In this document: positions 58,731 to 64,000 of the stretch, piece by piece | How positions within the stretch are numbered: the first letter of the stretch is position 1 | Layout: each line of letters begins with the position of its first letter | DNA from: an uncultured Alphaproteobacteria bacterium | Lineage (GTDB): Bacteria > Pseudomonadota > Alphaproteobacteria > JAJFIK01 | DNA length: 64,000 nt | Assembly (NCBI GenBank): GCA_964561475.1 | Contig: CAZLPU010000005.1 | Coordinates: forward strand, 4,425-68,424 | Direction of reading: 5' to 3' | Position numbers and translations under genes: made by a program | The notes under the pieces: generated by a model | Databases searched by the model: none | The model's input: only the letters and a program-made list of their open reading frames with translations | Told to the model about the DNA's origin: nothing

Positions 58731-59663
58731 ATGACGGTAAACCTGTACGAGGTTCTGGGCCTGCGCCCTTCGGCGAGTGAAGGTGAAATCCGTGCAGCCT
58801 ACCGGGAACTGGCCAAGAAATACCACCCCGACCTGAACCCCAACGACACAGACGCGGAGGTCCGCTTCAAGGACATCTCTGCGGCCTACGCCATCCTGGG
58901 CGATCCGGAGAAACGCCAGCGCTACGACAATGGCGAGATCGACGGCACCGGGGAGCGCCAGCGGGCCTATTACCGGGGCCAGGCCGAGGGCACGGAAGGC
59001 GGCAAGTACAGCCGCTGGAACCGGGTCACTGCCTTTGAGGATTTTGCGGACCTGTTTGCCGACCTGTTCACCGGCCCCGCGTCCATGGGTCCGAAGGCCA
59101 AGGCCGGCCAGGATGTCCGCTATGCCATGGACATCCCCTTTATCGACGCCGCCAAGGGGGCCGCCCGCAAGATCACCCTGAATGACGGCCGGTCCCTGGA
59201 TGTAAAGATCCCGGCGGGTGTCCAGGATGGTCAGGTGCTGCGTCTCAAGGGTCTTGGAAACGCGAGCAAGGCGGGCACCCTGGGGGATGCCCTTCTGCGC
59301 ATTCGCATTCAGCCCCACCCCTATTTCGGTCGGGAGGGGTCGAATATCCGCCTTGATCTGCCGCTAACGCTTTACGAAGCGGTGCTGGGCGCGGAACTTC
59401 AGATGCCCACGGTGCATGGATCCATTCCCGTGCGTATCCCTCCAGGGATCAATAGCGGCGCGGTCATGCGGCTCAAGGGCAAGGGCATTCACGCCACTTC
59501 GGGCCAGGACGCGGGCGAGACCGGCGACCAGATCGTGACAATACGGATCATGCTGCCGGAGACCGTGGACGAGGAGCTCTACACCTTCATAAGCCGCTGG
59601 AAGAAGCGCAACGAGTACGACCCGCGCTCCACGTGGATAGCGGCGGAGGGAGACCAGACATGA
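58731..59663 (+). CDS. cbpA: Curved-DNA-binding protein CbpA (DnaJ-like co-chaperone)
   Basis: J-domain with HPD (YRELAKKYHPDLNPND) and DnaJ-type C-terminal domains. Has no Zn-finger region, as expected for CbpA. Confidence 0.85.
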   Translation: MTVNLYEVLGLRPSASEGEIRAAYRELAKKYHPDLNPNDTDAEVRFKDISAAYAILGDPEKRQRYDNGEIDGTGERQRAYYRGQAEGTEGGKYSRWNRVTAFEDFADLFADLFTGPASMGPKAKAGQDVRYAMDIPFIDAAKGAARKITLNDGRSLDVKIPAGVQDGQVLRLKGLGNASKAGTLGDALLRIRIQPHPYFGREGSNIRLDLPLTLYEAVLGAELQMPTVHGSIPVRIPPGINSGAVMRLKGKGIHATSGQDAGETGDQIVTIRIMLPETVDEELYTFISRWKKRNEYDPRSTWIAAEGDQT

Positions 59664-60016
59664 TCCAGCCCGAGACCTTCATGACCATCATTGACGGTGT
59701 GGATCAGGCCCATGTGGAGGCTTATGTCTGCAAAGGCTGGGTCACCCCGTCCCACCGCAATGGCGTGCCCATGTTCCAGGACATCGACATTGCCCGGGTG
59801 CGCCTGATCCACGAACTCCAGCAGGACATGGGCGTGAATGACGAGTCCGTGCCGATCATTCTGGCTTTGATCGACCAGGTCCACGACATGCGCGTGCTCC
59901 TGCGCCAGATTGCCGACCAGTTCGACAAGTCGCCCGGCTCGACCGCCCAGACCGCGCGCCGCCGGGTCTCCATCCCCGCCGCCAAGGACACCCCGCTCAG
60001 CCCGATATTAAAATAA
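59660..60016 (+). CDS. cbpM: Chaperone modulator CbpM (MerR-like)
   Basis: Its ATG overlaps the cbpA stop (ATGA). MIQPETFMTIIDGVDQAHVEAYVCKGWV is a CbpM-family N-terminus. Confidence 0.75.
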   Translation: MIQPETFMTIIDGVDQAHVEAYVCKGWVTPSHRNGVPMFQDIDIARVRLIHELQQDMGVNDESVPIILALIDQVHDMRVLLRQIADQFDKSPGSTAQTARRRVSIPAAKDTPLSPILK

Positions 60017-60053
60017 TGAAGTGCAAGATGACTAACTGGATCGGGAGCTTGAG

Positions 60054-60617
60054 ATGACACTTGAATGGTTCAACACGCGCAAAGCGGCACAAGTAGTGGC
60101 TTTTTTCGCCTGTAAAGAAGGTCGGCCTATCCCTGTGCTAAAGCTGGCGAAACTCATTTATCTCTCTGACCGAAAACATATGGAGCGTACAGGATTCCCG
60201 GTGCTCAATGACCGCCTTGTATCAATGCCACATGGTCCGGTAAACTCGATCACGCTTAATTATATAAGCGGCATGCAGGATGCGGACAATCATGACTGGA
60301 ATACCTTCGTAAAGCCGCGCGTAGATTACTCTGTGGGTGCCGCAAAGAAATTTGAGATCAAAGACTTTGATGAATTAAGTAATGAGGAAATAATTAGCCT
60401 TGAGGTCGTCTGGAAACTATTTGGCCACATGAAAAAGTACGAAATCCGGGACTGGACGCACGAGAACTGTCCAGAATGGGAAGATCCGCTCGGCAGTTCA
60501 ACGCCGATACCCCACGAGCGAGTAATGAAGTATCTCAGTGTCACAGATGCAGAGACTTTCGCCGATGAAATTGAAGTCGAGCGGCGCATTGATGAAGTAT
60601 TCGCATCTTTGCGCTAA
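60054..60617 (+). CDS. Panacea-domain (DUF4065) protein, SocA/PanA-like antitoxin candidate
   Basis: The core LKLAKLIYLSDRKHMERTGFPVLNDRLVSMPHGPV fits the Panacea/DUF4065 pattern (LxKL.Y....G.P......W.YGPV). ~47% GC in a 65% GC genome. Confidence 0.65.
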   Translation: MTLEWFNTRKAAQVVAFFACKEGRPIPVLKLAKLIYLSDRKHMERTGFPVLNDRLVSMPHGPVNSITLNYISGMQDADNHDWNTFVKPRVDYSVGAAKKFEIKDFDELSNEEIISLEVVWKLFGHMKKYEIRDWTHENCPEWEDPLGSSTPIPHERVMKYLSVTDAETFADEIEVERRIDEVFASLR

Positions 60618-60635
60618 TGTCGGCACGTTTGGAAG

Positions 60636-61022
60636 ATGCTGCGAAAAAAAGTAAGTCTACTCATCCCCTCGGGCACATATCACGATCCAGAACGCAAACA
60701 CCTATTTGTGATTTGCACTGATCCCTGCACCAATGGGCTCCAGGTTCTCGTGAATGTGACGACGTGGACAAATAGCCTATGCGATGCAACCTGTCGCCTC
60801 TCTCGCGGTGATCATCCGTTTATACGCCACGACAGTTACATTCTCTATCGAAAGGCGCGTATAGAGCACAATAAAACACTTTTAAGAGGTGTTGAGAATG
60901 GTGTTTTTCTGCCGCGACAACCTTTCAAGGGAGCTGTTTTTGCAAGGATCCAATCGGGGATCGTTTCCTCACCCCACACACCTGGTAGGGTGAAAAATTA
61001 CTTCCAAAACAAAACCCAATAA
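60636..61022 (+). CDS. Hypothetical 128-aa protein, candidate cognate toxin (PanT-like) of the Panacea-domain protein
   Basis: Starts 18 bp after the Panacea gene with a GGAAG Shine-Dalgarno. Same low GC. No recognisable domain. Followed by the CCTAGC-aggaaa-GCTAGG hairpin. Confidence 0.45.
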   Translation: MLRKKVSLLIPSGTYHDPERKHLFVICTDPCTNGLQVLVNVTTWTNSLCDATCRLSRGDHPFIRHDSYILYRKARIEHNKTLLRGVENGVFLPRQPFKGAVFARIQSGIVSSPHTPGRVKNYFQNKTQ

Positions 61023-61327
61023 GGTTTTTCCTAGCAGGAAAGCTAGGTCGCGGGTGGGAGGCATTTTTAGGGAACGCAATCAAGCTAGATTACGGCTCCT
61101 GGATGCTGAAGTGTTCTGATTGCTCGTGAGCCGGATATGAATGCCCTTTATCTTTCGGCTCCAATACGCCATATGGCTTTCTTCGGAAACGAACTGTGAC
61201 TCGCAAGGATCCCATACTGCTTTTCGGGCCAATCTAATGACCATGGGTCTCCGATGTCCGGAAAGTTTGTTGACCGGCCACCACATGGTTGGCCCCGCGC
61301 CCGACTGGCACAGCCGGAGGATTTTCC

Positions 61328-62833
61328 ATGGCCGTCTATGTTGAAGGCTCATCCAGGACATTCAACGAATTCCTGCTGCTGCCCAATCTGACCCGCAAGA
61401 CCGACACCCCCGCCAATGTGGATCTGTCCACGCCCCTCGACCGGTTTGCCCGGGGCGGCCAGCCGCGGATCCGGTTGAACCTGCCCATGACCTCGGCTGT
61501 GATGCAGTCGGTCTCAGGGCCGGATCTGGCGGTGGCCCTGGCCCGGTGCGGCGGGCTGTCGTTCATTTTCCATTCCCAGCCCATTGCCTCCCAGGCGGAA
61601 ATGATCCGCAAGGTGAAGTCCTTCAAGGCGGGCTTTGTGGTGAGCGATTCCAATCTGCGCCCGGATGCGACCATTGCCGACGCGGTGGCCATGTCCAAGC
61701 GCACGGGCCACTCCACCATCGCCATCACCGATGACGGGTCTGCCGGTGGCCGGTTCATGGGCCTGCTCACCCGCAACGACATTCCCATCAAACAGGACCG
61801 CCACGGCGAACCTGTGGACCAGTGGATGACCCGGCCCGAGCAGATGGTCACCGCCCCTTCCGATGTCTCCATGGAAAAGGCCCAGGATCTGATCTTTTCC
61901 TCCAAGCAGCGCTGCCTGCCCGTGATCGACCGGAACGGACGGCTGGTGCATCTGGTGTTCCGGCGGGATTTCGAGACTCAGGAGCAGTTCCCCCACGAAC
62001 TGATCGACAGCGACCGCCGTCTGATGGTCGGTGCCGGGATCAACACCCATGACTATATGGACCGCATCCCCGCCCTCATGGAGGCGGGCGCCGATGTGTT
62101 CTGCATCGACGCCTCCGACGGGTTCAGCGAATGGCAGGGCGATGCCCTGCGCCATGTGCGCAAGACCTACGGGGAAGACGTGATCATCGGCGGCGGCAAT
62201 GTGGTGGAAGAAGACGGCTTTCGCTATCTGGCCGATGCGGGTGCGGATTTCATCAAGATCGGGATCGGCGGCGGTTCCATCTGCATCACCCGGGAGCAGA
62301 AGGGCCTGGGCCGGGGGCAGGCCTCCGCGCTGATTTCCGTGGTGGAAGCCCGGGACCGGTACTACCGGGACAAGGGCATTTATATTCCTCTGTGTTCCGA
62401 TGGCGGCATTCAGCACGATTATCACATCGGTCTCGCCCTTGCGATGGGTGCGGATTTTGTCATGCAGGGCCGCTATTTCGCCCGCTTCGATGAAAGCCCT
62501 GGGCGGAAGATGCGTCTGGGGTCCCGTTACGTGAAAGAGTACTGGGCCGAAGGGTCGGACCGGGCCCGCAACTGGGCCCGCTATGACGTGGGCGGAGAGC
62601 GCAGGCTTCAATTCGAGGAAGGCGTGGACGGCTACGTGCCCTATGCGGGGGACCTCTACAGCAACGTGGCCCGCACCCGCGCGAAGATCACCTCCACCAT
62701 GTGCAATTGCGGCTCCACCTCCATCCCCGAATTCCACCAGAGCGCCCGCCTGATCAACGTCTCCCAGCAAAGCTTCCTGGAGAGCACCTACTCGATCGAG
62801 CGCAAGGAAGGCGAGGACATGCGCTTCGCGTGA
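61328..62833 (+). CDS. IMP dehydrogenase/GMP reductase-family protein (IMPDH-like with CBS pair)
   Basis: GGAGGA Shine-Dalgarno upstream of MAVYVEGSS. IMPDH barrel motifs (GIGGGSICITREQKGLGRGQ, catalytic Cys loop) with an inserted CBS-like region. Divergent from canonical GuaB. Confidence 0.75.
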   Translation: MAVYVEGSSRTFNEFLLLPNLTRKTDTPANVDLSTPLDRFARGGQPRIRLNLPMTSAVMQSVSGPDLAVALARCGGLSFIFHSQPIASQAEMIRKVKSFKAGFVVSDSNLRPDATIADAVAMSKRTGHSTIAITDDGSAGGRFMGLLTRNDIPIKQDRHGEPVDQWMTRPEQMVTAPSDVSMEKAQDLIFSSKQRCLPVIDRNGRLVHLVFRRDFETQEQFPHELIDSDRRLMVGAGINTHDYMDRIPALMEAGADVFCIDASDGFSEWQGDALRHVRKTYGEDVIIGGGNVVEEDGFRYLADAGADFIKIGIGGGSICITREQKGLGRGQASALISVVEARDRYYRDKGIYIPLCSDGGIQHDYHIGLALAMGADFVMQGRYFARFDESPGRKMRLGSRYVKEYWAEGSDRARNWARYDVGGERRLQFEEGVDGYVPYAGDLYSNVARTRAKITSTMCNCGSTSIPEFHQSARLINVSQQSFLESTYSIERKEGEDMRFA

Positions 62834-63302
62834 TCCGGGCGGCGAAAGATCCTGCACTGAGCATCTGAGTGGCCTCACTCCTGGAGTGGATCGCAAAGGT
62901 CATCCCACAATGGACCCTGGTGGCCGGCGCACCAGGGCCGTGCTGCGATCCCGCCGGTTGTCGACGGGTTCTGAGACACTCTAAGAGAGCCGTGTCAGGA
63001 CGCGTGCTCCGTTTCACGACTTTCAGAACCCATTGGAAAAACGGCGGCCATTACGCCTTTCACGAGTGAAGGTTACGCCGCCTTCCCTTCAATCTGGCTG
63101 ACCCCACCAGAAAAACCCGTCTGGGCTGTAATGAAGCTCTCAATCCGGCGTAGACGTCGCATCGGGGGCGCGAACAGCCAGCGACAATGTGGAAATTACG
63201 ATTGTTGGACATGGCCTGGCCCCGGGTCTATGTTCGTGTAGCAGTGCAGCATAATTGTAACCTATGCTGTTTTTTCCTTTCCACTTTGGGGGCATGTTCT
63301 TT

Positions 63303-64000
63303 ATGGCTCAGTTCCATCAAGGGTCTCGTCTGCGTGCTTGTCTGTTTGGCACCGCAGCTCTAGTCAGTGTTGCTCAGGTCTTTTCTGCACCGGTTCACGC
63401 CCAGGACGCGGCAGCGGGCGTAACAGAGGGCGAAGAGGACGAAGTCATCACCGTAACGGCGCGAAAGCGCGGGGCGGAATCTCTGCAGGCCATTCCCGGC
63501 AGCATCCAGGCCATCACCGGCGATGATCTGTCAGGACGGGCCTCCACAGGTTTCGACGACTATTCGCGCTTCGTACCTGGCCTGAGCGCCAACAATTCCG
63601 GCACCGGACAGACCCAGTTGACCATCCGTGGCGTGACGTCCACCCGTCTGAACCACGCCAACCCGAACATTCCGTCTACGGCAGGCATCTATTTCGATGA
63701 AACGGCGGTGACCACCTCCGGCTTCAATCCGGATGCGGGCCTGGTGGACATCGCCCGGATCGAGGTTCTGCGCGGCCCTCAGGGTACCCTGTTCGGCGCC
63801 AGCTCCATGTCCGGCGTGATCCGCGTGATCCCCAATGACCCGCAACTGGGTGAATTCACCGCGGATGCAGGCTTCACCACCTTCCTCACGGACAATGGCG
63901 ACCCGAGCTACAACGGCGATCTGACGGTCAATGTGCCCATCCACGACACTCTGGCCCTGCGGGTTTCGGGCTATGGCATCGAGCGCGGCGGGTATATCGA
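63303..64000 (+). CDS. TonB-dependent receptor (5' partial; continues beyond window end)
   Basis: ATG at 63303, signal peptide (ALVSVAQVFSAPVHAQ), TonB-box-like EDEVITVTA and plug-domain motifs (IEVLRGPQGTLFGASSMSGVIRV). The open frame runs to position 64000 and is absent from the ORF track because it has no stop. Confidence 0.75.
   Translation, partial: MAQFHQGSRLRACLFGTAALVSVAQVFSAPVHAQDAAAGVTEGEEDEVITVTARKRGAESLQAIPGSIQAITGDDLSGRASTGFDDYSRFVPGLSANNSGTGQTQLTIRGVTSTRLNHANPNIPSTAGIYFDETAVTTSGFNPDAGLVDIARIEVLRGPQGTLFGASSMSGVIRVIPNDPQLGEFTADAGFTTFLTDNGDPSYNGDLTVNVPIHDTLALRVSGYGIERGGYI

Follow-up and report, generated by a model that had tools for sequence, protein, structure and literature searches.

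Does the short low-GC islet that separates a cbpM-like gene from an IMP dehydrogenase (IMPDH) gene in an uncultured alphaproteobacterium encode a new toxin-antitoxin (TA) pair, or a further copy of one already described? The islet lies within a 64,000-nt stretch of contig CAZLPU010000005.1 (assembly GCA_964561475.1), which we refer to as the window, and it carries a gene for a 187-aa protein followed directly by a gene for a 128-aa protein. An earlier sequence-only reading had proposed that the first of these is a Panacea-domain antitoxin and the second a candidate new toxin of the PanT group. Our analysis indicates that the islet is very probably a horizontally acquired type II PanAT cassette, in which the antitoxin PanA neutralizes an RNase-like toxin of PanT cluster T6 by binding it directly. 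The pair is an ordinary further copy of a published family with laboratory validation, and its toxin is not a new one.

The 187-aa protein matches PF13274 (SocA_Panacea / DUF4065) with 70.5 bits (cutoff 25.7; E=2.9e-19) over profile positions 1-112 of 113, a full-length domain match that bears out the proposed Panacea assignment. The core motif that had been quoted for it, LKLAKLIYLSDRKHMERTGFPVLNDRLVSMPHGPV, is present in the product, which also matches phrog_1281 (E=1.8e-23) and was found as an exact protein in both NCBI and Logan. PanAs encoded upstream of homologues of the 128-aa protein are 36-57% identical to the window PanA, and 25 of the 26 that were aligned are 184-197 aa long. This alignment revealed a conserved PEWEDP-GS--IP motif at residues 140-152 together with a C-terminal extension that is present in every one of the 26 proteins. 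In the window PanA the corresponding C-terminal helix region (residues 143-187) is acidic, with 11 D/E residues versus 5 K/R.

The 128-aa protein is basic (19 K/R and 6 H versus 8 D/E) and matches phrog_19071 (E=3.3e-20). A word-indexed search with this protein returned only 14 close clusters; an exhaustive profile search recovered 3,274 representatives with an E value of 1e-3 or less, of which 1,621 reach 1e-10 or less, so the family to which it belongs is large. Across 70 diverse family members, three residues (H22, D50 and Y71) are invariant and eight more (L9, G13, L23, C53, H60, S67, G108 and S112) are conserved in at least 90%; none of these residues is missing from the window protein. 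The 128-aa open reading frame (ORF) is a real, conserved gene.

To which family of toxins does it belong? Kurata et al. (2022, PNAS, PMC8832971) scanned 20,209 genomes and grouped the partners of Panacea antitoxins into 88 PanT clusters; two of these, T5 and T6, consist of 'hypothetical proteins' with HHpred matches to EndoA, PemK, MazF and CcdB (PMC8832971, Dataset S1). The window PanT is 41% identical, over 122 residues and 95% coverage (E=8e-33), to BBC81763.1 (WP_126621608.1), which is encoded on a plasmid of Acetobacter orientalis FAN1 and whose 90%-identity cluster is represented by WP_012553438.1 of Gluconacetobacter diazotrophicus. Both WP_126621608.1 and WP_012553438.1 are labelled PanT cluster T6 (PMC8832971, Dataset S1), and by homology to these listed proteins the window PanT is a member of T6. 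The same cluster also holds proteins from Mesorhizobium, Neorhizobium, Bradyrhizobium, Altererythrobacter and Marinicaulis, as well as members from Photorhabdus, Halomonas, Acinetobacter and Pasteurellaceae (PMC8832971). Its representative, the Pseudomonas moraviensis PanT WP_083201923.1, was paired with PanA WP_083354365.1; this toxin is toxic in Escherichia coli, is rescued by its own PanA and forms a stable complex with it in a pull-down, and it selectively blocks incorporation of 35S-Met, which marks a block of translation and not of DNA synthesis (PMC8832971). Neutralization by the PanAs that were tested needed neither ClpXP nor Lon (PMC8832971). The idea that the 128-aa protein might be a new PanT is therefore not upheld, since its relatives were already listed as T6 and the representative of that cluster has been validated experimentally.

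Two other clusters were considered and rejected. T5, which is MazF-like and rich in Photorhabdus, was set aside when an accession cross-check placed the relatives of the window protein in T6. T1 had been suspected because it holds entries from Acetobacter, Methylocapsa, Helicobacter and E. coli prophages; comparison of the family profile with the phage Emek protein YP_006560566 gave an hhalign probability of 0.3% and a BLASTP E value of 5.

The 128-aa partner had been described as unrecognizable, and structure prediction overturns this description. An AlphaFold2 model built with 15 homologues (pLDDT 88.5, pTM 0.81) has with confidence the predicted MazF/Kid/CcdB fold, an SH3-like barrel: in a Foldseek search of the PDB the top 47 matches were all MazF, Kid or CcdB structures (probability ~1, TM 0.5-0.66), and against viral models the top matches were named 'PemK-like protein' and 'Endoribonuclease'. 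The RNase toxins ToxN, AbiQ and CptN are also among the fold matches, and the Endozoicomonas homologue is named 'PemK-like protein' in UniRef. In MazF, the catalytic Arg lies at the start of beta2 and a Thr/Ser lies in the beta3-beta4 loop. H22 of the window PanT is placed at the start of the predicted beta2 and D50 in the loop after beta3; we infer that H22, D50 and Y71 are putative active-site residues. A single-sequence phmmer search of the PDB had also returned a marginal match (E=0.004) to gp16, the packaging ATPase of phi29, in its C-terminal domain; this match vanished when the family profile was used, and we attribute it to chance. Three Pasteurellaceae T6 toxins (from Histophilus, Haemophilus and Pasteurella) carry the RefSeq name 'terminase' (PMC8832971, Dataset S1); this naming and the gp16 match are probably a coincidence, or an annotation taken over from prophage context.

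Linkage of the two genes was assessed by collecting loci on the basis of toxin homology alone. A PanA gene lies directly upstream of the toxin gene in 29 of 29 such loci; the gap ranges from -20 to +108 nt, and the flanking genes differ from locus to locus. The loci include metagenome contigs, 13 genome assemblies (mostly Alphaproteobacteria) and one E. coli chromosome, plasmids of Phaeobacter, Acetobacter, Endozoicomonas and Acinetobacter, and temperate phages of Klebsiella, E. coli, Yersinia, Pseudomonas, Vibrio and Helicobacter; in most hosts the GC content of the module is below that of its surroundings. Kurata et al. (2022) defined PanAT pairs in silico as genes no more than 100 nt apart in which relatives of the toxin also lie next to PanA. 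In the window the gap is 18 nt, all 29 loci are reciprocal, and the order PanA-then-PanT is kept across taxa, plasmids and phages. PanA-PanT is a mobile two-gene cassette. Among complete E. coli genomes, 208 of 5,426 carry a T6-like pair (WP_000458584.1 and WP_014640052.1), always on the chromosome, and the toxin of the O103 strain RM8385 (L024, 1501-2489) is 32% identical to the window PanT. This pair also occurs in phage Lys8385Vzw, where it adjoins the integrase gene. On a Phaeobacter inhibens plasmid (L029, 1878-2708), the PanAT pair adjoins a gene for an 'abortive infection family protein', a neighbour compatible with a defence-island context at that site.

The islet itself is a true insertion of acquired DNA. 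It fills the whole cbpM-IMPDH spacer, over ~1.3 kb (~60005-61327), and in 200-nt windows the GC content falls from 0.60-0.72 to 0.44-0.50 across ~60000-61200; the panA-panT module has a GC content of 0.472 versus 0.635 and 0.616 in the 2-kb flanks, in keeping with the low-GC islet amid high-GC core genes that had been noticed at the outset. The closest relatives of the host by IMPDH are NCBI metagenome-assembled genomes (MAGs) with 74-80% identity, one of them labelled Alphaproteobacteria bacterium. In all three related MAGs examined, the order cbpA (DnaJ), cbpM (MerR_2), IMPDH is kept and the islet is absent, which is why we regard it as inserted: the cbpM-IMPDH spacer measures 128, 269 and 277 bp at 66-76% GC in these relatives versus 1,311 bp in the window. 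With the flanking genes matched and three empty sites in hand, the proposed acquisition between cbpA-cbpM and an IMPDH-family gene stands. DNA homology with the relatives picks up again precisely at 61326-61328, the IMPDH start codon, so that the right edge of the islet lies at or before this codon. On the left, homology ends inside the 3′ end of cbpM, after ~59893, and the edge is approximate, within the last AT-rich codons of that gene. No target-site duplication, flanking direct repeats or terminal inverted repeats were found at the islet, nor was a tRNA, and no Rfam element matched the islet or its tail. The non-coding tail, downstream of panT, showed no similarity to the spacers of the relatives or to other PanAT loci and no plasmid match, and it contains small ORFs without a PHROG or Pfam match, none of them convincing. 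The tail presumably now also carries the IMPDH promoter.

Within the islet, the layout is that of an antitoxin-first bicistron, and both ORFs have the coordinates first assigned to them (Table 1). The panA stop codon (TAA, 60615-60617) and the panT start codon (ATG, 60636) are separated by 18 nt. A GGAAG sequence does precede panT, as had been pointed out; it abuts the ATG with no spacer and for that reason is a poorly placed Shine-Dalgarno sequence, a placement that may mean low or translationally coupled toxin synthesis. A hairpin with a 6-bp stem was likewise correctly noted downstream of panT; it lacks a T-run and its folding is no more stable than that of shuffled sequence (z=-0.33), and so it is not a canonical intrinsic terminator. 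Upstream of panA, a sigma-70-like match is a possible panAT promoter, although two such sites occur in the region versus 1.2 expected, and the match alone is not significant. The two genes are in one frame, parted by a single TAA and six sense codons (TGT CGG CAC GTT TGG AAG); one readthrough event or mutation at this stop codon would fuse PanA and PanT into a 322-aa chain.

Table 1. Features of the islet and of its flanks, in window coordinates.
Feature	Position	Strand	Description
cbpA-like gene (DnaJ, DnaJ_C)	58731-59663		Left flank, upstream of the cbpM-like gene
cbpM-like gene (MerR_2)	59660..60016	+	PF13591, E=5.3e-7; gene call in the identical Logan contig
Sigma-70-like promoter match, AGGACA-18 nt-TAAAAT	59985..60014	+	9/12 positions; -10 element in the AT-rich left junction; possible panAT promoter
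Islet	60005..61327	none	GC profile and empty sites in three related MAGs
panA Shine-Dalgarno, GGGAG	60043..60047	+	6 nt upstream of ATG, read from the sequence
panA	60054..60617	+	187 aa; Panacea domain at residues 31-142; without N-terminal accessory domain
GGAAG before panT	60631..60635	+	Directly abuts ATG, no spacer
panT	60636..61022	+	128 aa, basic; PanT cluster T6 by homology; remote MazF/Kid/CcdB fold (predicted)
Islet tail, non-coding	61023..61327	none	305 bp, GC 0.53
Hairpin, CCTAGC-AGGAAA-GCTAGG	61030..61047	+	8 nt past the panT stop codon; 6-bp stem, no T-run
IMP dehydrogenase gene, PRK07107 type	61328..62833	+	NF005493, 769 bits (cutoff 585); synteny in relatives

These observations provide the basis for a model of how the cassette may act. 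By analogy with the validated T6 representative, PanT, as a highly diverged MazF/PemK-type SH3-like barrel, would most likely cleave mRNA, tRNA or rRNA, and such cleavage would shut down protein synthesis. PanA most likely neutralizes the toxin through a tight stoichiometric complex for which ClpXP and Lon would not be required. Contact with PanT is probably made by the Panacea core, by the conserved acidic C-terminal extension, or by both. Because a conserved acidic tail of PanA faces a basic toxin, the tail could occupy the nucleic-acid groove of PanT, as the tail of MazE does in MazF. In the NetFlax study, a standalone Panacea domain was found to neutralize directly, and C-terminal extensions do so in other PanAs. 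An excess of antitoxin would be favoured, since panA has a good and panT a poor ribosome-binding site. Loss or inactivation of PanA, whether by proteolysis or through a phage cue sensed by the Panacea domain, would free PanT and arrest growth; this arrest would stabilize the cassette and could give a phage defence of the abortive-infection type. One may go further and suppose that T6 PanTs are not conventional MazF enzymes, having kept the barrel and acquired another active site (His22, Asp50 and Tyr71, with His60, Ser67 and Cys53) and another RNA target or chemistry, that PEWEDP and the acidic tail form a toxin-specific neutralizing module, and that the Panacea core acts as a sensor of phage or stress; in this extended form the model is doubtful. 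In the literature searched, no T6 toxin has had its substrate defined, its structure solved or its active site mapped.

Several observations weigh against the type II PanAT reading of this locus. The 128-aa protein matches nothing in Pfam, NCBIfam or PADLOC, which leaves it without a sequence-level link to MazF; specifically, PF02452 (PemK_toxin) fails to match it and reaches 1 of 70 family members at E=0.15, hhalign of the family against E. coli MazF gives a probability of 0.3%, and an hmmsearch of the PDB with the 70-member profile returned nothing. Because sequence methods fail to reach MazF, its assignment to this group rests on predicted structure and on the published HHpred matches, and because the family keeps His, Asp and Tyr invariant instead of the canonical Arg/Thr pair, the chemistry or target of T6 toxins may differ from those of MazF. 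The function of the window PanT would be carried over from the P. moraviensis toxin only through shared cluster membership, and several of the PanT candidates tested showed no toxicity in E. coli or could not be rescued (PMC8832971). At the locus, no terminator-like site was detected in the region, a canonical promoter for an independent operon is also lacking, and no toxin gene is called in the identical Logan contig (L031, 1318-1704). Some of these points would suit a toxin that poisons gyrase as CcdB does, or an effector with the same SH3-like barrel but an activity other than that of an RNase: the catalytic residues of MazF are not evident, sequence profiles stop short of MazF, and a His, an Asp and a Tyr are invariant. 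The T6 representative, however, inhibits protein synthesis selectively, and not the synthesis of DNA, and we consider such an effector very unlikely. Others would suit a decaying or inert remnant, its toxin inactive or unexpressed in the host and the locus without current function, given that the toxin ORF is uncalled in the source gene predictions, that its Shine-Dalgarno sequence is poorly placed with no clear promoter or terminator, that several PanTs lacked toxicity in E. coli assays, and that the window PanT ends in …YFQNKTQ where …Y-GC is the common ending. Yet both ORFs are full-length, without frameshifts or premature stop codons, the residues conserved in the family are all intact, PanA matches the complete Pfam domain, and C-terminal endings vary in other members of the family too; decay of the cassette is thus unlikely.

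The remaining alternatives concern how the antitoxin acts and what the pair is for. The analogy with SocA/SocB of Caulobacter, drawn in the sequence-only reading, would imply a type VI system in which PanA is a ClpXP adaptor that has the toxin degraded and does not sequester it; the Panacea domain is shared with SocA, and the host and Caulobacter are both alphaproteobacteria. The window PanA, however, reaches only 16.4 bits with the SocA equivalog model NF047745, whose cutoff is 190, and is not a SocA orthologue, SocB is a different toxin, that of PanT cluster T10 (PMC8832971), and the PanAs tested, including that of the T6 pair used in the pull-down, neutralize without ClpXP or Lon through stable complexes (PMC8832971). 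The analogy does not hold, and a mechanism of this kind is extremely unlikely here. A different question is whether the pair serves primarily in abortive infection, with Panacea sensing a phage cue and freeing a MazF-like toxin, a proposal that departs from ours in role only. Members of the family occur frequently on plasmids and in prophages, where they lie near integrase or in moron positions; the Phaeobacter copy has its 'abortive infection family protein' as a neighbour; ToxN, AbiQ and CptN appear among the fold matches; and the authors of the NetFlax study incline to the view that Panacea is a sensor and point to the many TAs that defend against phage. Against this, neither protein matches PADLOC, the window cassette stands alone between housekeeping genes with no defence island around it, and the literature searched contains no anti-phage test of any T6 pair. 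We regard a primarily anti-phage role as quite possible, though not probable. Taken together, these comparisons favour a type II PanAT cassette whose toxin, RNase-like in its predicted fold, is most likely held in check by direct binding of PanA.

Toxin genes of this family are easily passed over by gene prediction. The exact sequence of the window PanT is absent from a collection of 15 billion proteins in which PanA, CbpA, an ABC transporter and IMPDH from the same contig are all present. No gene is listed under the toxin match in two Phaeobacter plasmids, for which the PLSDB table is incomplete; in the Pseudomonas phage Sirocco a short ORF on the opposite strand is annotated in place of the toxin. 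L029 1501-1881 (the P. inhibens plasmid) and L026 1483-1881 are among the toxin ORFs so missed. As the toxin gene is often uncalled, annotation-based surveys undercount PanAT pairs and label PanA as an orphan.

The flanks of the islet hold some further details. The cbpM-like gene ends in the AT-rich codons ATA TTA AAA TAA, and its similarity to orthologues is lost over 59893-60016; these last codons probably come from the insertion, through which cbpM seems to have exchanged its original C-terminus and stop codon for new ones. The true start of IMPDH is the ATG at 61328 and not the TTG at 61289, as the exact 501-aa protein is present in NCBI. In one relative without the islet (GCA_964406365.1; L034, 5548-7169), another small cassette, comprising an AAA_15/AAA_21 ATPase gene and a gene for a 154-aa protein without a family, lies directly downstream of IMPDH, and the other relatives have unrelated genes at this position; the region around IMPDH may serve as a hotspot at which small cassettes, mobile or defence-like, collect. 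Photosynthetic reaction-centre genes (Photo_RC and CytoC_RC; L034, 7268-9506) lie a few kb from IMPDH in the same relative, and for this reason the host lineage may be phototrophic Alphaproteobacteria. A second, smaller dip in GC content (0.51-0.53) at 63100-63400 is intergenic and upstream of an ORF that runs from ~63304 past the end of the window; by eye, the N-terminus of this ORF resembles a signal peptide followed by the plug region of a TonB-dependent receptor.

For the TA family catalogued and validated in 2022, the window contributes a further chromosomal copy from an uncultured alphaproteobacterium, and as a discovery it has little value; the residual novelty lies in the toxin chemistry of T6 as a family and not in this locus. 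The islet does offer a clean natural case of a PanAT cassette in an intergenic spacer whose counterparts in relatives are empty, and it illustrates movement of the module without recognizable integrase or repeat signatures. For studies of the T6 mechanism, targets for mutagenesis are available both in the toxin (H22, D50 and Y71) and in the antitoxin (PEWEDP and the acidic tail), and the E. coli T6-like pair is an easy experimental model for the family.

How, then, does the window pair compare with the systems already known? Like the T1 ('mRNase') pair of the Salmonella phage vB_SemP_Emek (YP_006560565/6), it consists of a Panacea gene followed by a small hypothetical toxin, an arrangement often found in prophages; the toxins, however, are not homologous (Emek orf161, hhalign 0.3%), and the Emek PanA has 149 aa versus 184-197 aa in nearly all PanAs of the present family. 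With SocAB of Caulobacter crescentus it shares a Panacea antitoxin and an alphaproteobacterial host, whereas its toxin is unrelated to SocB, which blocks the replication clamp, and SocA is a ClpXP adaptor. T5 and T25 also combine a Panacea antitoxin with a MazF-fold toxin, and T25, from Bifidobacterium ruminantium, is a validated translation inhibitor that CDD recognizes as PemK (PMC8832971); the accessions linked to the window PanT nevertheless fall in T6, and T5 is a separate homology cluster. As in MazEF and Kid-Kis (PemIK), a small basic toxin is encoded behind an antitoxin with an acidic tail in an antitoxin-first bicistron, and translation is shut off, as seen in the related T6 member rather than in the window protein itself. 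Unlike in those systems, the window toxin has no detectable sequence similarity to PF02452, its family conserves His22, Asp50 and Tyr71 and not the Arg/Thr pair of MazF, and its antitoxin is a Panacea protein without a DNA-binding domain in place of a MazE/AbrB-fold or Kis protein. The closest likeness is to T6 of P. moraviensis. Although the cbpM/IMPDH site sets the window pair apart from the T6 copies described before, in both a PanA without an N-terminal domain is encoded, across a short gap, upstream of a 'hypothetical protein' toxin of ~125-140 aa, one that has no CDD or Pfam domain yet is predicted to share the fold of MazF, PemK and EndoA.

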